Below, piece after piece: positions 3-34,113 of a DNA stretch of 34,113 nt (the first letter of the stretch is position 1; the number at the start of each line of letters is the position of its first letter). The position numbers and the translations under genes are program-made. Below the pieces are notes generated by a model. It was given only the letters and a program-made list of their open reading frames with translations. It ran no database searches and was not told where the DNA came from. The stretch comes from a virus (Duplodnaviria > Heunggongvirae > Uroviricota > Caudoviricetes), in IMG/VR virus record IMGVR_UViG_2695420576_000005, positions 1 through 34,113 of that record. One strand, written 5' to 3'.

Positions 3-863
3 GCATTATTACTGGAGCCACTGCAGTTCACCTTTATGAGTCACGCACTGCTGATTTCACTGGTAGTTTCCATACCCTGTGCGCTGCTGTCGGTCTTTCT
101 GGTCCTGAAAGGTTGGGCACTGATGGGTGACGCGATGAGTCATGCGGTTTTTCCTGGCATCGTGCTTGCCTGGATTCTGGGGTTACCTCTGGCTACAGGG
201 GCATTCGTCGCCGGAGTATTCTGCGCGGTGGCGACGGGATACCTGAAAGACAACAGCCGAATCAAGCAAGATACAGTGATGGGGATTGTTTTTTCTGGCA
301 TGTTTGCCGCAGGTCTGATCTTGTATATTGCAGTCAAACCAGACGTACATCTTGACCATATTCTTTTCGGCGACATGCTCGGGGTAACCATCGGCGATAT
401 AATCCAGACGGTGATTATTGCCGGGCTGGTTACACTTGTTATTAGCGTAAAATGGCGGGATTTTTTTCTGTTTTTGCTGTTCAGCTTTGATTATCAACAG
501 GCGCAGGTAAGCGGTTTGCATACGAGATGTCTGCATTATGGGCTGCTGTGCATGGTCTCTCTGACCATTGTGGCGACGCTGAAAGCGGTAGGTATCATTC
601 TCTCCATTTCTCTGCTCATTGCGCCTGGCGCCATTGCGGTACTCCTGACACAACGCTTTCATATTGCGCTCCTACTGGCGATTGGCATATCGGTAATAGT
701 GTCAATGACTGGTGTCTGGTTGTCCTTTTTTATCGACAGTGCACCAGCTCCGACGATTGTCGTCTTATTCGCGGTTGTGTTCATCATGACGTTCACCGTT
801 ACCAGCATCAACGCACGCACAAAGGGAAACACCCATACACAGGATTTGTCATCACCCAATTAG
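3..863 (+). CDS. sitD: Mn2+/Fe2+ ABC transporter permease, SitD/MntB (ABC-3) family; 5'-partial
   Basis: Track ORF 36..863; the same frame is open back to nt 3 (ALLLEPLQFTF precedes the first Met), so the start lies outside the window. Polytopic hydrophobic protein resembling SitD-type permeases by recall. Confidence 0.7.
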   Translation, partial: ALLLEPLQFTFMSHALLISLVVSIPCALLSVFLVLKGWALMGDAMSHAVFPGIVLAWILGLPLATGAFVAGVFCAVATGYLKDNSRIKQDTVMGIVFSGMFAAGLILYIAVKPDVHLDHILFGDMLGVTIGDIIQTVIIAGLVTLVISVKWRDFFLFLLFSFDYQQAQVSGLHTRCLHYGLLCMVSLTIVATLKAVGIILSISLLIAPGAIAVLLTQRFHIALLLAIGISVIVSMTGVWLSFFIDSAPAPTIVVLFAVVFIMTFTVTSINARTKGNTHTQDLSSPN

Positions 864-5348: not shown

Positions 5349-5948
5349 TCAGAACTTATAACCGACACCCACGATGAAACCGTCAGTGCGCCAGTCACCA
5401 CTGCCGGAGCCTTCATAAGCAATATCAATGGCCACGGATTCGGTCGGGTTAAACTGCACGCCAGCTCCCCACGCCAGAGACGTGTTGCTGTGGCGACCGT
5501 CATCACTTCCGGTCAGCACATCGTGCGTTTTCCCCTTGTTGTCAGTTACGCGGAGGTAATCCCCGGAAAAAGTCGAAACACGGCTGTAAGCCATACCCGC
5601 CATCGCATACGCGCTGAACCATTCATTCACGCGCACAGACGGCCCCGCCATCACGCTGAACCAGCGGTTACGCACGGAATCTTTATGCCAGCGGGTATCG
5701 CTGTAACGGGTCAGCTGACGATTCTTGTATCCTGCATAACTGAATGACGTCACCAGCCCCAGCGTGTCCGTAAATTCATAACGGTATTTCACGTTAATGC
5801 CCTTCAGGTCATCACTGCCTGGCATATCAGTATGGGTCTGAAGATACCCGGCGCTTAGTGTGGACTGATGCTCTGCTGCGCTCGCTGGCGTACCAGCGGC
5901 AACCAGCCAGACTACTGCGGACAGAATAACAGCACATAATTTACGCAT
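5349..5948 (-). CDS. lom: Lom/Ail/PagC-family outer membrane protein
   Basis: 199-aa ORF with signal peptide; C-terminus ...AYEGSGSGDWRTDGFIVGVGYKF matches lambda Lom; located directly after J as in lambda. Confidence 0.85.
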   Translation of the reverse strand: MRKLCAVILSAVVWLVAAGTPASAAEHQSTLSAGYLQTHTDMPGSDDLKGINVKYRYEFTDTLGLVTSFSYAGYKNRQLTRYSDTRWHKDSVRNRWFSVMAGPSVRVNEWFSAYAMAGMAYSRVSTFSGDYLRVTDNKGKTHDVLTGSDDGRHSNTSLAWGAGVQFNPTESVAIDIAYEGSGSGDWRTDGFIVGVGYKF

Positions 5949-6015: not shown

Positions 6016-9000
6016 TCAGCTGATACTGATGCCTGCAGTGGCTTTCTTCATCACAACAACCAGCAAATCGCTGATACTTGCTGTGGGATACCAACCATTT
6101 ACCCACCATGCTGATACAGAAAACTCCAGTGTCATTACACCACTGCCTGCAGGCATATCAATAACACCCGTGTAAATCAGAGTATTATCCAGAGCCGTTC
6201 GGTTATAAATTTCAGCCCCGTTTTTCTTCACTATCAGGCGGCATGACGAATAAGTATCGCTATTCTCCCGCTCATGTCTGGCACCGCAGAAAGCCCACCG
6301 CTGGAATAACAATTTGCCGGTCAAACGACTGATCGTCATAAACCCTGACGGTAATAGTCCCTGATGGCCACCGCTCCGGTGCACGGGAGTCCCGGGGGAA
6401 AGCTTTGCCCACTGTTTTAACGAGATCGCCTTCAATCTGGTTCGCGGACAGTTTTCCCAGAACCCGACAGTTCTCGTTAATCGTGACATTATTGAGCGTC
6501 CCGGAGTTCGCATTCACGTTACCGCTGATATCGGCATTTTTCGCCGTCAGCCGCCCGTCCGGTGTCAGGGAAAATACCGGAGGATTGCCGCCACTGGTAA
6601 TGGTGGGAGCCGTCAGATACTTCAGGAACACTTCGTTCATGAATATCTGGTTGCCCTGCGCCACAAACATCGGCGTTTCATTCCCGTTTGCCGGGTCAAT
6701 AAACGCGATACGGTTAGCGGCAACCAGGAACTGGCTCAGTTTGCCTTCCTCCGTATCCTCCATACTAAGGCCAAGCCCCGCGACATAATGCCTGCCGTCT
6801 TCGGTCTGCTCAATTTTGACGCCCCACATGGCATTCCATTTATCGTTGGCGTCCTTCCACTCTTTCGAAAACTCCTCCAGTTTGCTGGCGTTATCCTCCG
6901 TCAGCTCGACTTTTTCCAGCAGCTCCTTGCCGAGATGGGATTCGGTTATCTGGCCTTTGAAAAAATCCAGGTAACCTTCCGCATCATCGCTCGGCTGACC
7001 AACAGCCTCCACGAATGCCGATTTGCCAACGGTGTTCACACTGCGGATATAAAAGTAATAATCATGGCCCGGTTTGATATTGATACTGGCAGCTATCCAG
7101 TACAGCGCCGTACCAAGATAGCGGGCTGTGGTCTCAACCTGCCTGATATCGGTAATCCGCTTTTCCGAGAACCAGAACTCAAACTGTACCGTCGGATCAT
7201 AAACCGCAAGATGCGGCGTGGCAGTTATCTGAAAATAGCCCGGCGTCAGCTCAATCCGCGACGGCGCTGCCGGTGCGGCAATCCGGAACGATACCGATGC
7301 CGGATCGCCCTGCTGTCCCCACGCATTTACCGCCCGGACCGTCAGCGTGTAACGCCCCAGCGCCAGTTGCCTGAAGCGGTATGTGGTTTCCGTCGTCCTG
7401 GCCGTGCTGACCAGCCGCTCACTGCCGTCATCCGCTGCCACGGTCAGGCGAAGCATAAAGCTCACCCCCTTCACCACCTTCGGCGTATCCCAGCGCGCCA
7501 GCACCTGATACTCCCCGCTGTCTGAGGTGACTTCGGCAGTCAGGTGCTGCACCGCAGGCGGCGTGACACCATTCACCGTGCCGCTCTGGTCGCCGTCAAA
7601 GTGCGCCCCGTTATCCACGATGGCCTCTTTTTCCGGCACATGCTGCACGGCGGTGATGGCATACGTGCCGTCGTCGTTCTCACGGATACTCACGCAGCGG
7701 AACAGGCGCTGGCGCAGCGTCGGCAGCTTCAGCCCCCATACGCTGTATTCAGCAACACCGTCAGGAACACGGCTCACTTTTACCTTCACGCCGTCGGTGA
7801 CGGACTGAACCTCCACGCTGACCGGATTGCCACTTCCGTCAACCAGACTTATCAGCGTGGTACCGGAGGATGGCAGCGTGATTTCACGGTCGAGCGTCAG
7901 CGTCCGGGTCTGGCTGTTCACCGCCAGCACGCGCAAGCCGATGCTGATACCCGCATAGTCATCATCACAGATTTCAATGACATCCCCCGGTACATGGCGA
8001 AGCCCTTCCGCACCCACGCTGAAGTCCACGGTCTGCGTTTCCAGCAGTTCCGTTTTAATCAGCCACAGCCCGGCGCGGTGCGCCTGCCCCCGGCTGGTAC
8101 AGCCAAAGGCATCCATCTTCGTGACGTTACGACCGTAACGGGCAATGGCCTGCGTATCTTCAACAAGCTCTGTCGCCGTCTCCCAGCCGTTGTTCGGGTC
8201 AATCCAGTTCACCTCAACGGCATTATGGCGGTCCTTCAGGGCGCTGAAGCTGTAGCGGAACGGCGCGCCATCATCCGGCATCACCACATTACTGCGGTTA
8301 TAGGTCCACACCTTATCTGATGGTCGGTCCTGCACGAACGTCAGCGTCTGCCCGTTCCATACCGGCATACAGCGCATCGCCGAGCAGAAATCACTGAGCA
8401 CATCCCACGCCTTGCGCTGTGTGGTCAGCCAGGCATTACAGGTGATGCGCGGCTCCGTGCCACCAAAGCCATCCGGCACCGACTGGTCGCAATTCTGGCC
8501 GATGACATACAGCGCCCATTTGTCCACATCCGCCGCACCGAGACGCTTCCCCATGCCGTAGCGCGGATGGGTCAGCATATCCCACAGACACCAGGCCATG
8601 TTGTTGCTGTATGCTGGCTTAAACGTTCCGTCCCAGATACCGCTGTATTGTCGCGTCTGCGGGTTATAGTTCGACGGCACCTGCAGAATGCGCCCGCGAA
8701 GATGATAATTACGACTCACCTGCTGGCTGCCGAACTGCTCCGAGGGTCCACCTGTACGCTGACCAGTGCCGTGTTCGGGTAGCACTGTTTCACATCGATG
8801 ATTTCGGTGTATGACGACCAGAGCGTTTTGTTCTGCAGCTGGTCTGTGGTGCTGTCCGGCGTCATCCTGCGCATCCGGATATTAAACGGGCGCGGCGGCA
8901 GGTTATCCACCACCACCGAGGCCAGATACTGCGAGGTGGTTTTGCCTTTAATGGTGATGTCTTTTTCCGTCACCCAGCCACCGTTACGCTGTATCTGAAC

Positions 9001-9414
9001 CAGCAGGCGGACTTCCGACGGATTCCGGTCCCCCTTTGAGGTGGTTTCCACCAGTGCCTGCACACCGAAGGTAAAGCGCAGACGGTCGATGTTTGCAGAC
9101 GTGATGGTCCGGGTAATCGGCGTGTCGTACTTCACTTCCGTACCCAGCACCGTCTCGGAGCCGGAGGATTCAAATCCCTCCGGCGGTGTCTGCTCCTGCT
9201 CACCTGCCCGGAACACCACCGTGACACCGGAGATATTGGTATTCCCCTCACTGTCCAGCACCGGCGTACTGTTCAGCAGCACACTTTTTAATCCGTCCAC
9301 CGGACCTTCAATCGGCCCTTCACTGATGGCGTCTATCACGCTCAGCATCTGGGATGATTTCAGGTTGTCCTTCGCTTCGCGCGGGGTATGCCCCTTACTG
9401 CTGCCTTTACCCAT
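6016..9414 (-). pseudogene. J: tail tip / host-specificity protein J, interrupted by two frameshifts
   Basis: Three collinear ORF pieces (8716..9414, 6272..8785, 6016..6513) each match successive parts of lambda J. The span is 3399 nt, the intact lambda J length. Frame changes at about 8744-8747 (C run) and 6290-6293 (T run). Confidence 0.85.
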
Positions 9415-10769: not shown

Positions 10770-11468
10770 TTACTGCGAAAGTTTGTTAATGGAAAGGAAG
10801 CCGCCAAAGTTGCCGACATTATTGCGGAACTCACAGCCACTCAGGCATTTGCTGCATTTATCCTTCGTGATTTCGGATGTCGGCTGGTCATATTCATCCG
10901 CGACCGCCGGACCGTGATAACCGCACTCATCACCGCGATAGGTCCAGGTGCAGGTATTAGCAAGCATGATGCGCCCCGGAAAAACGGCACCATCCGTTTC
11001 CGTCGGCGTGGACAGTACAAAAGAGGCACTGACCGCGCTCAGTTCGCTGCACTGCTCGATGCGCCAGCGGCTGATCACCTCCTGCTCCGGATCGGCGTCG
11101 CTGTTTCCGTTGACGAAGTTCACCGCATCCAGAAAACGGGCATAAACCTTACGCCTGACCACCGTTCCGCCGACCAGACTCTGCAGGTCTTCCGCCATCC
11201 CGGTGACCATACCGTACAGGTTAGAAACCGTCAGCGTGGGGCGCGTACTGGTGCCTTTGCCATTCAGTTCAAAACCACTCCCCTGAATGGGATACGGCTG
11301 ATACTGTCGCCCCTGCCAGGTGACCGGCTCACCTTTTTCGTTCTGCTCATTACAGAAAAAATAACGTTCTCCACCGACCTCTGTCAGGTCGATTTCCCAG
11401 AGCACCACGCTGGCCGACTGCTCCGCACGGGTGCATTCATTCAGTGTTTCCTGCCGGATATCCTGCAT
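10770..11468 (-). CDS. L: tail tip protein L
   Basis: 232-aa ORF MQDIRQETLNECTRAEQSASVVLWEIDLTEVGGERYFF..., same length and sequence as lambda gpL by recall. Confidence 0.9.
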   Translation of the reverse strand: MQDIRQETLNECTRAEQSASVVLWEIDLTEVGGERYFFCNEQNEKGEPVTWQGRQYQPYPIQGSGFELNGKGTSTRPTLTVSNLYGMVTGMAEDLQSLVGGTVVRRKVYARFLDAVNFVNGNSDADPEQEVISRWRIEQCSELSAVSASFVLSTPTETDGAVFPGRIMLANTCTWTYRGDECGYHGPAVADEYDQPTSEITKDKCSKCLSGCEFRNNVGNFGGFLSINKLSQ

Positions 11469-11797
11469 CAGTTCACCACCTGTTCAAACTCTGCGCTGAA
11501 CTCAACACGCAGCATACTGACCCGCGACGACCATTTTGCGCAGGTCACCTTTATCTGCCGCCACTCATAAGGCGGCGTCCACAGAAAGGCTTTCCAGCCC
11601 CCGTGCTCTTCCAGAAACGACTCCAGCGCCGCGGCCTCCCAACGGGGAACAGAAAGCGTCACGCTGTACGTTTTCAGGTTGGCATTCAGCCCGGCAGGCG
11701 CTCGCTGGGAATAGCCATCACCAAAGCGCACCTTTCTTACAGAAGGGGCCGAAGCCACATCCATACCGGGTTTCACTTTCCAGCGGAAGGTTTTCAT
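11468..11797 (-). CDS. M: tail tip protein M
   Basis: 109-aa ORF MKTFRWKVKPGMDVASAPSVRKVRFGDGYSQRAPAGLNANLKTYSV..., lambda gpM. Confidence 0.9.
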   Translation of the reverse strand: MKTFRWKVKPGMDVASAPSVRKVRFGDGYSQRAPAGLNANLKTYSVTLSVPRWEAAALESFLEEHGGWKAFLWTPPYEWRQIKVTCAKWSSRVSMLRVEFSAEFEQVVN

Positions 11798-14363
11798 CGT
11801 CCACCTCCGGAGAACAGACCACCATCACGCATCTGAGCCCGGTCACAACATCCATTGCCGCCTTACGGGCTACGTCATAAACAGCCTTCAGCGCCTGTGG
11901 CCCTATCTGACCGTTCGTGCCGTCGTTGTTAATCACCACATGGTTATTCTGCTCAAACGTCCCGGACGCCTGCGACCGACTGTCCGCCATGCTGCCCGGT
12001 GTACCGACATAACCGCCGGTGGCATAGCCGCGCATAAGCCGGTAAAGATTCCCCACGCCAATCCGGCTGGTTGCCTCCTTCGTGAAGACAAATTCACCAC
12101 GGTGAACAATCCCCGCTGGCTCATATTTGCCGCCGGTTCCCGTAAATCCTCCGGTCGCAAAATGGAATTTCGCCGCAGATGCCTGAATGGCTGTACCGCC
12201 TGACGCTGATGCACCGCCAATGACACTCCCGACACTCCCGACGATCCCCACCATTGCCTGCTTAAGCAGAATTTCTGTCATCATGGACAGCACGGAACGG
12301 GTGAAGCTGCGCCAGTTCTGTTCACTGCCGGTCAGCATCGCCGCCATATTCTGTGCAATACCATCAAAGGTCTGCGTGGCTGCACTTTTTACCTGCGACA
12401 TACTGTCCGTGGCGCTCTCTTCCCACTCACTCCAGCCGGACTTCAGGCCTGCCATCCAGTTCCCGCGAAGCTGGTCTTCAGCCGCCCAGGTCTTTTTCTG
12501 CTCTGACATGACGTTATTCAGCGCCAGCGGATTATCGCCATACTGTTCCTTCAGGCGCTGTTCCGTGGCGTCCCGCGCTGCCTGCCGGTCAGTCAGCCCC
12601 CGGTTTCAAGTCGCCTCAATGGCTGCCCGTTTTGCCCGTTGCTGCTGTGCGAATTTATCCGCCTGCTGCGCCAGCGCGTTCAGGTGCTCCTGATACGTGA
12701 CCTTATCGCCAAGTGCAGCCAGCTGGCGTTTGTACTCCAGCGTCTCATCTTTATGCGCCAGCAGGGATTTCTCCTGTGCGGACAGCTGGCGACGTTGCGC
12801 CGCCTCCTCCAGTACCGCGAACTGACTTTCCGCCTTCCACAAATCCCGGCGCTGCTGGCTGATTTTCTCATTCGCTCCGGCATGCTTCTCCAGTGTCCGG
12901 AGTTCTGCCTGAAGCGTCAGCAGGGCAGCATGAGCACTGTCTTCCTGACGATCGCCCGCAGACACTTTCACGCCGGACTGCTTCGGCTTTTTCAGCGTCG
13001 CTTCATAGTCCTTTTTCGCCGCCGCCATCAGCGTGTTGTAATCTGCCTGCAGGATTTTTCCGTCTTTCAGTGCCTTATTCAGTTCCTCCTGGCGGGCGGT
13101 ATATTTCTCCAGCGGTGTCTGCAGGCGTTCGTAAGCCTTCTGCGCCTCTTCGGTATATTTCAGCCGTGATGCCTCAGACGAGGCCCGATCTTTTGCTGCC
13201 ATCTCACTGGCCTTTTCAAGATCTGCCTGCAACGTGGCGGCTGAAAGCCCAAGTCGCGCATTCTCTCTCTTCTCCCATGCCCCCCGGAGATTGGCAAGAA
13301 ATGCTGACGTTTTACCGCGCCGGTGGCTTCGGCTCTGATACCACTGCCATTTTTTATCCGCTTCATCAAAAGCCTTTTCAGCTTTGGCGAGCATATCTGC
13401 AGAGGAGTCCGGGCGACCAATATCCAGCACCGCATCCCACATGGATTTGAATGCCTGTGCAGTCTTGTCTGCCCAGGTCTCCAGCGTACCCATGTTATCT
13501 TTCAGTTTACGGGTCTGGTCATCAAACCCTTTCGTTGCGGCCTCGTTCGCCGCCTGCAATGCCCCGGCCCCATCGCCGGAACGCTGCAACTGAGCAACAT
13601 ACGCAATCTGTTCCGCCGTCACGTTATGGAACTGGCGCGCCATCGCCGTCAACCCAGACGTCGGGTCAGTGGTCAGCTTCCCGAAGGCTTCAGCGACCTT
13701 GTCCACCTCCACGCCGGATGCAGAGGAGAAACGCGCCACACTCTGGCTGATTGCCTCAAACTGCTCACCACCACGCACACCGGCATTCACCAGCGCCGTC
13801 AGTGACTCGCTGGTCTGGTTAAACGTCAGCCCTGCCGCCTGCCCGGATCTGGACAGGGCCAGCATACGATCTGCCGTCAGTCCCGCCTGATTACCGGAAA
13901 GGACCAGCGTTTTATTGAAATTGGACAGGGTTGAGTCACCCTGATACCAGGCATACGCCAGCGCACCGGTCGCCACCGCCAGCGAAGTGATACCAACCAT
14001 CGGCAGGGTGATCGCACCGGCAAGCCCCCTGAACATGGGGATCATCCCGCCGAAGGAGTCCTTCACCTGACCACCCTGTTGCAGCAGGATGAGCCACGGA
14101 TTCTGCCCCCCTGCAAGCTGCGTGGCCACGTCGGTGAACTGCGCAGGCAGCATACGCATGGCAGCTTTATACTGCCCGACGGAAATCCCCGCTTTCTGTG
14201 CAGCCAGCGCCTGCCGGTTCATTGACTGTTCAACGACTGCCGCTGTTTTTTTCGCATCACTTTCCGTACCGGAAAAATGACGCCTGACTCTGGCCATCTG
14301 CTCGTCAAATCTGGCCGCATCCAGACTTAAATCAACGACCAGATCGCCTACCGGTTCAGCCAT
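11794..14363 (-). pseudogene. H: tail tape-measure protein H, interrupted by an in-frame TGA and a 3'-terminal frameshift
   Basis: ORFs 12606..14363 (585 aa) and 11718..12509 (263 aa) are in one frame separated by TGA at 12606-12608. The conserved C-terminus ...QMRDGGLFSGGGR* (stop 11794-11796, overlapping the M start as ATGA) lies in a different frame. Confidence 0.85.
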
Positions 14364-14790
14364 ACCGGACTCCTCCTGCGATCCCTTCTGATACTGTCAT
14401 CAGCATTACGTCATCCTCCATCATGTCCGCCACATACGGGGAAGCGGGGATAACTTCATTCCCGTCCGGGCCAAAACGAACGCCTCCGGCAAGCCCTGCC
14501 GCTTTCTGCATCAGCACATCATCTTCAGGCTCTTCGTCAGCCTCGCGCCGGTTAAGCAGACTGAAATCCAGCGGATGCATATCCGGATCGCTGAAAAACA
14601 GGCTGAGCACGGTGTACGTCAGCCCGGAAAAGTGCATATCCAGCAGAACATCATGAAAATAATGGGTACTGTAAAAGCGGTGCCAGTCGGCATACTCCGT
14701 GGATGACATCCCGGCAAGCATGGCGCGCCAGTCGGGTCGCCCCATCTCACGCGCCAGTTTCAGGGCAAAACTCAGCTCACCGACGAACAC
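14356..14790 (-). CDS. T: T-frame segment of the G-T tail assembly chaperone fusion
   Basis: 144-aa ORF VFVGELSFALKLAREMGRPDWRAMLAGMSSTEYADW... matches the lambda gpGT C-terminal portion; begins immediately after the slippery heptamer. Confidence 0.75.
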   Translation of the reverse strand: MFVGELSFALKLAREMGRPDWRAMLAGMSSTEYADWHRFYSTHYFHDVLLDMHFSGLTYTVLSLFFSDPDMHPLDFSLLNRREADEEPEDDVLMQKAAGLAGGVRFGPDGNEVIPASPYVADMMEDDVMLMTVSEGIAGGVRYG

Positions 14791-14796
14791 TTTCCC
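14790..14796 (-). promoter_or_regulatory. programmed -1 ribosomal frameshift slippery heptamer GGGAAAG (G/GT site)
   Basis: Plus-strand ctttccc at 14790-14796 is GGGAAAG on the minus strand, followed by the T-frame ORF exactly as in lambda G-T. Confidence 0.7.
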
Positions 14797-14823: not shown

Positions 14824-15198
14824 TCAGACGAGGGCCTGTTCAGGGGAATTATTCACCACAAACTCAGACATTCCGGACAGACGTAACACCACGTTTTCAG
14901 CCTGAGCAATTGCCTCCGTGGGCCAGGTGGTAAGCACTTCCTGCTCAATCTGCGTAATGGCTTCATTCATGGACGGCAGCTTTGTCTTCTGCGGATGGTT
15001 ATGCCACAGAGACATCGCCACCAGAAACGCCCCGCCTCTGATAAGATCCTCTACAGACACCTGCAGGTTGCCGCTGGATTCAGCCTTTTTTTCCTGCTCT
15101 TTCAACCAGGCAAGATGCTCAATACGCTGCAGGGCTGACAGTTCAGAAAGCGTGACGGTCACGCCGTTATGTTCAAATGATTCTGTTTTCAGGAACAT
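14824..15198 (-). CDS. G: tail assembly chaperone G, truncated: 3' end out of register with the slippery site
   Basis: 124-aa ORF MFLKTESFEHNGVTVTLSELSALQRIEHLA... matches lambda gpG (140 aa) but stops at TGA 14824-14826; the conserved tail SSDAGPAEPVSAGKCSS and GGGAAAG lie in the +1 frame. Confidence 0.75.
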   Translation of the reverse strand: MFLKTESFEHNGVTVTLSELSALQRIEHLAWLKEQEKKAESSGNLQVSVEDLIRGGAFLVAMSLWHNHPQKTKLPSMNEAITQIEQEVLTTWPTEAIAQAENVVLRLSGMSEFVVNNSPEQALV

Positions 15199-20492: not shown

Positions 20493-24173
<3,681 letters not shown>

Positions 24174-25386: not shown

Positions 25387-25680
25387 ATGAAAAAAATGTT
25401 GTTTTCTGCCGCTCTGGCAATGCTTATTACAGGATGTGCTCAACAGACGTTTACTGTTGGAAACAAACCGACAGCAGTAACACCAAAGGAAACCATCACC
25501 CATCATTTCTTCGTTTCGGGAATTGGACAGGAGAAAACTGGTGATGCAGCCAAAATTTGTGGCGGCGCAGAAAATGTTGTTAAAACAGAAACCCAGCAAA
25601 CATTCGTAAATGGATTGCTCGGTTTTATTACTTTAGGCATTTATACTCCGCTGGAAGCGCGTGTCTATTGCTCACAATAA
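25387..25680 (+). CDS. bor: Bor lipoprotein (serum-resistance lipoprotein family)
   Basis: Track ORF 25339..25680; lambda-equivalent start MKKMLFSAALAMLITGCAQQTFTV... (ATG 25387-25389, AGGA RBS); lipobox LITGC; 97 aa; opposite strand to the lysis genes as in lambda. Confidence 0.9.
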   Translation: MKKMLFSAALAMLITGCAQQTFTVGNKPTAVTPKETITHHFFVSGIGQEKTGDAAKICGGAENVVKTETQQTFVNGLLGFITLGIYTPLEARVYCSQ

Positions 25681-25711: not shown

Positions 25712-26173
25712 CTATCTGCACTGCTCATTAATATACTTCTGGGTTCCTTCCAGTTGTTTTTGCATCGTGATCAGCCTCTCTCTGAGGGTGAAATAATCCC
25801 GTTCAGCGGTGTCTGCCAGTCGGGGGGAGGCTGCATTATCCACGCCGGAGGCGGTGGTGGCTTCACGCACTGACTGACAGACTGCTTTGATGTGCAACCG
25901 ACGACGACCAGCGGCAACATCATCACGCAGAGCATCATTTTCAGCTTTCGCATCAGCTAACTCCTTCGTGTATTTTGCATCGAGCGCAGCAACATCACGC
26001 TGACGCATCTGCATGTCAGTAATTGCCGCATTCGCCAGCTTCAGTTCTCTGGCATTTTTGTCGCGCTGGGCTTTGTAGGTAATGGCGTTATCACGGTAAT
26101 GATTAACAGTCCATAACAGGCAGACGATGATGCAGATGAGCAGAGCGGAGATAATCGCGGTTAACCGACTCAG
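25712..26173 (-). CDS. Rz: Rz i-spanin; start codon uncertain (lambda ATG position is CTG here)
   Basis: Track ORF 25712..26302. From ...[37 protein letters not shown]... to ...KYINEQCR it is near-identical to lambda Rz, but the codon at the lambda Met position is CTG (26171-26173). In-frame GTGs lie 10-12 codons upstream. Confidence 0.7.
25771..25953 (-). CDS. Rz1: Rz1 o-spanin lipoprotein (embedded in Rz, +1 frame)
   Basis: 60-aa [63 protein letters not shown]; lipobox VVGC and proline-rich region as in lambda Rz1. Confidence 0.85.
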
Positions 26174-27563: not shown

Positions 27564-28684
27564 ATGAAAAAATTAACAGTGGCAATTTCTGCTGTAGCTG
27601 CATCAGTACTGATGGCGATGTCTGCTCAGGCAGCTGAAATTTATAATAAAGACAGTAACAAGCTGGATCTATACGGGAAAGTTAATGCCAAGCACTACTT
27701 TTCCTCTAATGATGCAGATGATGGTGATACTACTTATGCCCGTCTTGGCTTCAAAGGTGAAACCCAAATCAACGATCAACTGACTGGTTTCGGTCAGTGG
27801 GAATATGAATTCAAAGGCAACCGTGCTGAATCTCAAGGTTCTTCCAAAGACAAAACCCGTCTTGCATTTGCAGGCCTGAAATTTGGTGATTACGGCTCAA
27901 TCGATTACGGCCGTAACTACGGTGTAGCATACGACATCGGTGCGTGGACTGACGTCCTGCCAGAATTCGGTGGTGATACCTGGACCCAAACAGATGTGTT
28001 CATGACTGGTCGCACTACTGGTGTTGCAACTTATCGTAACAACGACTTCTTTGGTCTGGTCGATGGCCTGAACTTTGCTGCTCAGTATCAGGGTAAAAAT
28101 GACCGCACTGACGTAACTGAAGCCAACGGTGATGGTTTCGGTTTCTCCACTACTTATGAGTATGAAGGATTCGGCGTGGGTGCAACCTATGCTAAATCAG
28201 ATCGCACTGACGGTCAGGTCGCCTATGGTAAGAGCAAATTCAATGCCTCCGGCAAAAATGCGGAAGTATGGGCTGCAGGCCTGAAATATGATGCGAACAA
28301 TATCTATCTGGCTACCACATATTCTGAAACTCAGAATATGACCGTTTTTGGTAATAACCATATTGCAAACAAAGCACAAAACTTTGAAGCAGTAGCACAA
28401 TATCAGTTTGACTTCGGTCTGCGACCATCTGTTGCTTACCTTCAGTCAAAAGGTAAAGACCTTGGTGTTCATGGTGACCGAGACTTAGTCAAGTATGTCG
28501 AGTCTTAGTCAAGTATGTCGATGTAGTCAAGTATGTCGATGTCGGTGCTACTTACTACTTTAATAAAAACATGTCCACTTTTGTTGATTACAAAATCAAC
28601 TTAATTGACGATAGTAAGTTTACCAAAACAGCTGGTATTGATACCGACGACATCGTCGCTGTAGGTCTGGTTTATCAGTTCTAA
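27564..28684 (+). pseudogene. nmpC: prophage-encoded OmpC/NmpC-family general porin, reading frame broken 60 codons from the 3' end
   Basis: ORF 27564..28508 (314 aa with signal peptide [23 protein letters not shown], then [16 protein letters not shown]...). Downstream in another frame is an intact porin C-terminus ...[54 protein letters not shown] (stop 28682-28684). Confidence 0.85.
28485..28539 (+). repeat. imperfect tandem triplication of a 16-20 nt unit (ttagtcaagtatgtcga) causing a 38-nt insertion in the porin gene
   Basis: Copies at 28485-28501, 28505-28521 and 28524-28539, separated by gtc and tg. Deleting 28486-28523 restores a continuous porin frame. Confidence 0.8.
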
Positions 28685-32586: not shown

Positions 32587-34113
32587 TCAAAAATAAATCT
32601 CACCATCAACCATATATTTAAGAGTACTTATCGCCTGCTGGGCGGATATTACTTTCATTAAAGGATAGTGTTTAAAAACAATGCCATTCATAAAATAGAT
32701 ATCACAGGTTTTATTATCTGTATTAATTATAATTTTTTCGAATATTTTATAGGCAAGTGTACGACATAGCTCTCGCCCATTTTTACTGGTTAAATCAATA
32801 GCATGAAAATCACCAAGTGAACTCACCCCTTTACTCTTCAAAGTTTTTAATGATACCGAAGCCCTTCGTAATTCCTTATCTAATAGTCTTATTTTCTCTG
32901 CTATAGCGGTAACTTCAGGCGCGACAGACAATGCAACGATTAAATTATTAATTTTCATCTGAAGCTCAATAATTTTTAACTCTAAAGTTTCATTAGCATC
33001 TTTCTTGTTTTCAACTGGTTGAATTTTGCTACAATTAAAAAGCAATTCATTAATGATATTATAATCAACCAAATCTCTTTTTATTGATGGTCTGTCACAT
33101 CGATGTAATCTTCTCATCGGACAAACATAATAGCCATGCAAACTTCCAGATACCGCATGAACAATCATGGTATTACCACAAGCCTCACACTTCATAACTG
33201 TTCGAAGTAGATTTATTAGCATAGGATTCTTGCTACTATTGCTAATACCAAAAGGTGCCAACCGAATTTCCTGTACAGCGTAAAACAAATCATCTGATAT
33301 GACTCTGGGATAATAGCCAGCGATTTCACTTATCCCTTTCCCTCTTGCACGATATGAAGGTACGCATATACCTATCAGAGCTTTATTCGCTAATAATTTT
33401 TCAATTACAGAAGGTCCCCATGCACTTTCTTTTCCTGAGAAATTCTTTACAGCATGATCATTTAAATACTTGGCTATTGCATTCAATGAGCGCCTTTCCA
33501 TCCTGAGTTTAAAAATTAGCTCAATAGTTTTCACCCTGTCGGGGTCTGGAACAAAAGCCGTTCTTTTGTCATCCAATGAGAGCCATCTCGGACAAGAAGC
33601 CGTCATAATCGTGCCTGACTCCAGTGCATCCTGCCGTTTTTTCTTCCATGATAATTTAACCCGACTTGACTTTATCTCGCTTTCTTCATTTGCCCTTTGT
33701 GCTATAAGTATGGCTTTTATTAATGAATATGGCTCATTCAATGAGTCAATATTATAGACTGTATTATCGCAAAGAGTTATAACATCAATACCGTGATTCA
33801 AAATCAATTTCAGACGCTCAATCGCTTCACCGACTTTTTCTCTTGAAAGTCTGTCCAGACTTTCAACTAACAATGTAGTCCCTGGCAATATATAACCATG
33901 TTCTATAGCATCTAAAAATTCCGAAAAAGCTCCTGATTGTGCATGCTTTCCATTGAATGCGCTTAACCCCAAATCTTCATACGTTACGGTATCAAGGTAA
34001 TAATCACTATTTACCTTTAGCCATTCAGTAATAAGCCTTCTCTGGCGGTTTAATGAATCACCAGACATCTGACCTGGTGATGAAAATCGCATATATGCTA
34101 TGGCTTTTTTCAT
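32587..34113 (-). CDS. ybcK: large serine recombinase (resolvase/invertase N-terminal catalytic domain, recombinase domain, zinc ribbon), YbcK-like
   Basis: 508-aa ORF whose ATG is the last three bases of the window. N-terminus MKKAIAYMRFSSPGQMSGDSLNRQRR is a serine-recombinase catalytic motif; Cys cluster CEACGNTM...CPMRRLHRC. Matches DLP12 YbcK by recall. Confidence 0.85.
   Translation of the reverse strand: MKKAIAYMRFSSPGQMSGDSLNRQRRLITEWLKVNSDYYLDTVTYEDLGLSAFNGKHAQSGAFSEFLDAIEHGYILPGTTLLVESLDRLSREKVGEAIERLKLILNHGIDVITLCDNTVYNIDSLNEPYSLIKAILIAQRANEESEIKSSRVKLSWKKKRQDALESGTIMTASCPRWLSLDDKRTAFVPDPDRVKTIELIFKLRMERRSLNAIAKYLNDHAVKNFSGKESAWGPSVIEKLLANKALIGICVPSYRARGKGISEIAGYYPRVISDDLFYAVQEIRLAPFGISNSSKNPMLINLLRTVMKCEACGNTMIVHAVSGSLHGYYVCPMRRLHRCDRPSIKRDLVDYNIINELLFNCSKIQPVENKKDANETLELKIIELQMKINNLIVALSVAPEVTAIAEKIRLLDKELRRASVSLKTLKSKGVSSLGDFHAIDLTSKNGRELCRTLAYKIFEKIIINTDNKTCDIYFMNGIVFKHYPLMKVISAQQAISTLKYMVDGEIYF

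Follow-up and report, generated by a model that had tools for sequence, protein, structure and literature searches.

The in-frame stop in the tape-measure gene of an E. coli lambdoid prophage is probably an error of one draft assembly

The tape-measure gene H in the 34,113-nt stretch of DNA analysed here (the window; IMG/VR record IMGVR_UViG_2695420576_000005, positions 1 to 34,113) is interrupted, as deposited, by an in-frame TGA. To judge from sequence comparisons, this TGA is probably a consensus or assembly error of the draft assembly GCA_000397345.1, contig AOQH01000090.1. It belongs to a set of about 30 small differences, of insertion or multi-base type, that are spread along that contig, and the organism's real H would very probably be an ordinary intact 854-aa gene with AAA (Lys) at the site, as in a sibling assembly. 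The sequence-only reading had taken the stop for a biological inactivation. The truncation stands as written, but a sequence error is judged likelier, because the class of lesions to which the stop belongs is private, insertion-only, often complex, absent from the sibling and also present in chromosomal genes. The privateness, the complexity and the bias towards insertions are plain in the data; for the class as a whole we infer a technical rather than a biological origin.

The minus-strand TGA, 'tca' on the plus strand, is in frame with H. Translation of the minus strand from 14363 down to 11718 stayed in one frame throughout, with just one internal stop (...QQQRAKRAAIEAT-stop-NRGLTDRQA..., the residues before the stop being ...RAKRAAIEAT). 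The two open reading frames on either side, 12606..14363 (585 aa) and 11718..12509 (263 aa), both lie on the minus strand and in a common frame (14363 − 12509 = 1854 = 618 × 3). Aligned with the 853-aa lambda tape-measure protein (PDB 8IYK, chain H), the first piece covered residues 1–578 (E = 0) and the downstream piece residues 580–838 (E = 8e-155), and the gene calls of the collection placed the Pfam domains TMP_2 and Tape_meas_lam_C on the first and the second piece, respectively. The position and frame of the stop, the match of both frames to lambda H and a truncation near residue 585 of about 850, all claimed from the sequence alone, were thus borne out; the product as written ends at residue 585 of about 854.

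Homology and synteny place the interrupted gene in the lambda gpH family of tape-measure genes. Its homology to gpH extends across the whole length of the protein, it lies between the G/T chaperone genes and M-L-K-I-J, and the gene order V-G-T-H-M-L-K-I-J is common to the window and lambda. Unlike lambda gpH, the window copy has a TGA where lambda has K579, one extra codon and a frameshift over its last 13 codons. A single reading frame of ~850 codons, with a stop that overlaps the start of M, was found in the sibling and the other relatives (854 aa) but not here.

Base-level alignments revealed that the change creating the TGA is a 4-for-1 replacement and not a point mutation. On the coding strand, the window reads GCG ACT TGA AAC, the relatives GCG AAA AAC (A-K-N) and lambda encodes A-K-S; a single A has been replaced by CTTG, with a gain of 3 nt. 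A second lesion, an insertion of 2 nt, sits 770 nt downstream of the TGA. H of the relatives ends in ...VVTGQMRDGGLFSGGGR followed by the stop, whereas the window product would run ...VVTG and then through 39 out-of-frame residues, 80 nt into M. Because of this insertion, the downstream frame overruns the normal H stop, ending 76 nt beyond it. The last 13 H residues are replaced, and therefore suppression of the TGA would not give wild-type H. The earlier claim that the stop is inactivating unless suppressed accordingly holds for the truncation and not for the rescue. Neither the 4-for-1 nature of the change nor the 2-nt insertion had been part of the sequence-only reading. Coordinates of the features are collected in Table 1.

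Table 1. Features of the tape-measure gene and neighbouring tail genes in the window.
Feature	Position	Strand	Details and basis
H, orthologous span	11794..14363	-	2570 nt vs 2565 nt in intact 854-aa relatives; GN02350 annotation mapped via pairwise alignment
N-terminal H reading frame, 585 aa, up to the TGA	12606..14363	-	TMP_2
In-frame TGA	12606..12608	-	Read from sequence
Complex replacement creating the TGA	12607..12610		Plus strand CAAG vs T in UPEC132, GN02350 and sibling alignments; net +3 nt
In-frame continuation of H past the stop	11837..12605	-	Matches lambda H residues 580–838
Second H lesion, 2-nt insertion	11835..11836		Alignments including the sibling; frameshifts the last 13 H codons
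Out-of-frame H tail, 39 codons	11718..11834	-	Replaces ...QMRDGGLFSGGGR; overlaps the first 80 nt of M
Gene M, 109 aa, intact	11468..11797	-	Start normally overlaps the H stop; GN02350 mapping
Tail assembly chaperone G, 124 of 140 aa	14824..15198	-	GN02350 mapping, reading frame list
G lesion, complex	14827..14833		Plus strand GACGAGG vs TCT in relatives, +4 nt; brings TGA into frame at codon 125
G-T slippery heptamer GGGAAAG, sequence intact	14790..14796	-	Downstream of the premature G stop
T reading frame, 144 aa	14356..14790	-	Identical to relatives; GN02350 mapping
Tail tip gene J, broken	6016..9414	-	1-nt insertion at 6294 and 2-nt insertion at 8744-8745

Other tail genes besides H are broken too: G is cut short and J carries two frameshifts, so that the deposited sequence holds five frame-breaking lesions across three tail genes. 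The premature stop of G lies ~28 nt upstream of the conserved GGGAAAG heptamer, the G-T slippery site familiar from lambda G/GT, and as written both the full G protein and the G-T fusion would be impossible to make. Both insertions in J are homopolymer extensions and put ~2.4 kb of the gene out of frame. According to the GN02350 genes mapped onto the window, open frames are kept in the head genes and in M, L, K, I, T, U, Z and V. If the lesions are errors, the frames artificially broken by them would be those of H (twice), G, J (twice), sitA and a porin gene.

Adjoining sitABCD, the region is a lambdoid prophage of the DLP12 type in which the lambda-like module for head and tail is complete. 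Its DLP12-like backbone comprises ybcK, ybcN, ninE, ybcO, rusA, ylcG, quuD, an nmpC/ompC-like porin gene, essD, rrrD, rzpD, bor/iss and nohD, and its cargo includes iss/bor (25387-25680), lom (5349-5948) and the porin gene. The nearest complete genomes, UPEC132 and GN02350 among them, are 99.7–99.9% identical to the window and collinear over all 34 kb; these two are human and dog extraintestinal E. coli in which an intact 854-aa tape-measure protein is annotated. A comparison with related prophages, proposed from the sequence alone as a way to see whether the codon is a sense codon elsewhere, gave an unequivocal answer. AAA (Lys, lambda K579) occupies the site in UPEC132, GN02350, the sibling, five cluster members (all full-length cluster members that were read), 30 IMG/VR loci and lambda.

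The origin of the window was established by exact-sequence look-up among ~15 billion proteins. Each of the three truncated products (H, G and J) occurs on exactly one contig, AOQH01000090.1, a draft contig of GCA_000397345.1, in which window position 1 corresponds to contig position 21246 and the TGA to 33851-33853. The window's variant of tail protein I was found on one other contig, AOQO01000103.1 of GCA_000397485.1 (the sibling); the neighbouring accession prefixes and assembly numbers suggest that the two assemblies were submitted together. On the sibling contig lies the same prophage, and there H (854 aa), G (140 aa), J (1131 aa) and sitD (285 aa) are all intact. A literature search for AOQH00000000, AOQH01 and GCA_000397345 found no paper.

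A three-way alignment of window positions 1-20024, the sibling and GN02350 separated shared from private changes. Three events (4436, 4472 and 9820), all single-base SNPs, distinguished both the window and the sibling from GN02350; with these derived SNPs in common, the window and sibling strains are therefore true close relatives. The sibling had one or two private events, which were single-base SNPs with no indels. The window had 18 private events in 20 kb, among them all eight insertions and all dinucleotide or complex replacements, a class that appears unlike the real lineage SNPs in nature.

Over its full length, the window differed from GN02350 by 30 events: nine insertions, no deletions, six dinucleotide substitutions and 15 single substitutions. 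Transversions outnumbered transitions among the single substitutions (nine, including five T to G, versus six), and three complex replacements were present (CAAG/T, GACGAGG/TCT and AGCG/C). The 8.45-kb flank to the left of the window contributed 11 more events, with five insertions, including +3 and +2 in sitA, and again no deletions; flank events also fell in intergenic DNA and in the icd remnant. Over the 42.6 kb, the count was 14 insertions versus 0 deletions (binomial p = 1.2e-4 under equal odds). In most cases, the inserted bases extend a homopolymer or repeat the adjoining sequence in tandem.

The distribution of these events was uneven. Unique core coding sequence (3.5 kb; ymgC, ariR, ymgA, ycgZ, bluF, bluR and ycgX) showed no differences, and the head genes few. 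With unique core coding DNA free of differences, the spread is therefore not uniform, the affected sites being the prophage, sit, the icd remnant and intergenic DNA. A disruption of ymgA, which is uncalled as a gene in the contig, was considered and rejected, since its DNA is identical to that of the relative and only the gene calling differs.

Several further differences were observed along the contig. In sitD, window positions 462-470 hold a 9-nt imperfect tandem insertion, and sitA (contig 19329 and 19488) has gained 3 nt and 2 nt, the latter a frameshift; both are chromosomal iron/manganese transporter genes, and the lesion class is therefore not prophage-specific. Four substitutions cluster at 1030-1055 (A, CC, C and GC versus G, TG, T and TT), a short way downstream of sitD and close to a partial pseudogene for tail fibre assembly. 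This cluster has the look of an allele patch, yet it is private to GCA_000397345.1. The nmpC/ompC-like porin gene is frameshifted by an imperfect tandem triplication at 28479-28542 (20- and 18-nt units, 38 nt extra), the copies of which differ among themselves, which is odd for a fresh natural duplication. The start codon of rzpD (Rz-like endopeptidase) at 26173 is CTG here versus ATG in the relatives, one of the five T-to-G differences. The plus-strand 10-mer TCAGACGAGG was created twice by private lesions, at 13175-13184 in H (GA for TC) and at 14824-14833 in G (the GACGAGG lesion); this repetition could be a coincidence or a hint of a systematic artefact.

Among 5,426 complete E. coli genomes, the TGA variant was absent (best match 95.1% over 81 nt), and none matched the 2-nt insertion at 11835-11836 at 100% across the site (best match 97.5% over the full 81 nt). 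The TGA-bearing 32-mer had no matches in JGI metagenome contigs and IMG/VR, while its AAA version had 30 IMG/VR matches. None of 11 window-private k-mers was found in 30 related IMG/VR prophage loci, where the reference versions were present. The protein-altering differences tested (in L, V, portal, Iss and RusA) were each unique to AOQH01000090.1; the unchanged M and E proteins occurred on at least 1000 contigs.

Against the error reading stands an explanation that we regard as distinctly less likely but still a serious possibility, namely that the lesions are real, recent and strain-private mutations, the tail module of a DLP12-like cryptic prophage is decaying, and H is a true pseudogene with a nonsense and a frameshift lesion. 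Among E. coli lambdoid prophages, defective ones such as DLP12 of K-12 and the O157 Sakai pool build up pseudogenes, and cryptic lambdoid prophages do gain real inactivating lesions. The five frame-breaking lesions in three tail genes would fit such decay, as would the state of the prophage in the relatives, whose annotation lists partial genes for the side tail fibre and for tail fibre assembly. The uneven spread of differences could also reflect relaxed selection on accessory DNA, and tandem or homopolymer extensions also arise by real replication slippage. It is the difference-free 3.5 kb of unique core coding sequence and the slippage-like insertions that keep this explanation alive.

Weighing against real mutation, the sibling, with the same lineage SNPs, has none of the lesions, so that ~18 private events per 20 kb would be needed versus one or two in the sibling. 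Bacterial mutation is deletion-biased, contrary to the 14 insertions and no deletions counted here, and complex multi-base replacements and imperfect fresh duplications are uncommon as recent natural events. Unlike in known defective prophages, the head and tail module is intact in the relatives and the sibling, the lesions are private to one assembly, and the same class reaches sitA and sitD outside the prophage. A pseudogene inherited by descent should have its lesion in common with related strains or be limited to DNA under relaxed selection; the lesion was absent from the sibling and the other collections, and the class extended to sitA and sitD. What was found instead is the pattern of an artefact: presence in one assembly only, a non-biological spectrum and a density far above that of the sibling.

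If the lesions were nonetheless real, the element would be an ordinary decaying cryptic prophage, which by analogy with lambda H nonsense mutants might make heads at most and no tails. Lambda H amber mutants are tailless in a non-suppressing host. They have a premature H stop, as does the window, but theirs are laboratory-selected single-base changes to TAG, and the TGA of the window arose by a 4-for-1 replacement, has other lesions alongside and is probably not real.

It appears very unlikely that the differences are patches from a second, diverged lambdoid prophage, introduced by real gene conversion or through repeats that collapsed into a chimeric consensus. The relatives do have between one and eight H-matching places per genome, the differences are concentrated in DNA that is often multi-copy (prophage, sit and the icd remnant), and the 1030-1055 cluster resembles such a patch. 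The sequence at the TGA site, however, matches no allele in the complete genomes searched, and a donor allele would carry no stop or frameshifts. The absence of all 11 private k-mers from the related prophage loci means that they are not alleles borrowed from paralogues, and borrowing or a chimeric consensus found no support either at the TGA site or at the 10 other private variants.

That the TGA is a programmed recoding site (readthrough or selenocysteine), from which both a 585-aa and a full-length tape-measure protein are made, is so improbable that it was rejected: E. coli reads through UGA more readily than through the other stop codons, and 257 H-like codons follow the TGA without a further stop, but the stop is kept in no homologue (Lys, AAA, in all relatives and Lys in lambda), the 77 nt from the stop onward fold like shuffled sequences (MFE −23.1 versus a mean of −22.8 kcal/mol, z = −0.11), the RNA of the intact relative likewise folds no better than its shuffles, no Rfam family reaches its gathering score in the window, neither a conserved stop nor a SECIS or similar structure was found, and the readthrough product would keep the C-terminal frameshift, with G/GT and J also broken. 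Hardly any credence attaches, likewise, to a genuine TGA with partial readthrough in its UGA-A context, which would turn H into a natural two-product gene for a 585-aa fragment and a near-full-length protein. Two programmed events, the lambda G-T −1 frameshift and the Q-beta A1 UGA readthrough, resemble the window in that a region of structural genes contains a stop or a change of frame; these programmed sites are conserved and have defined signals, whereas the window TGA is conserved nowhere and lacks downstream structure.

An error in the draft consensus thus remains the probable explanation of the H stop. At contig 33851-33853 (window 12606-12610), GCGAAAAAC would be the outcome if the TGA is an artefact and GCGACTTGAAAC the outcome if the mutation is real. 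There is no new biology in the H stop of the window. The lesson is one of quality control: before a stop codon from a draft is given a biological reading, it needs comparison with a sibling assembly or with reads. Taken at face value, AOQH01000090.1 would lead to overcounted pseudogenes and to a lambda-like tail module being scored as defective when it is probably intact.
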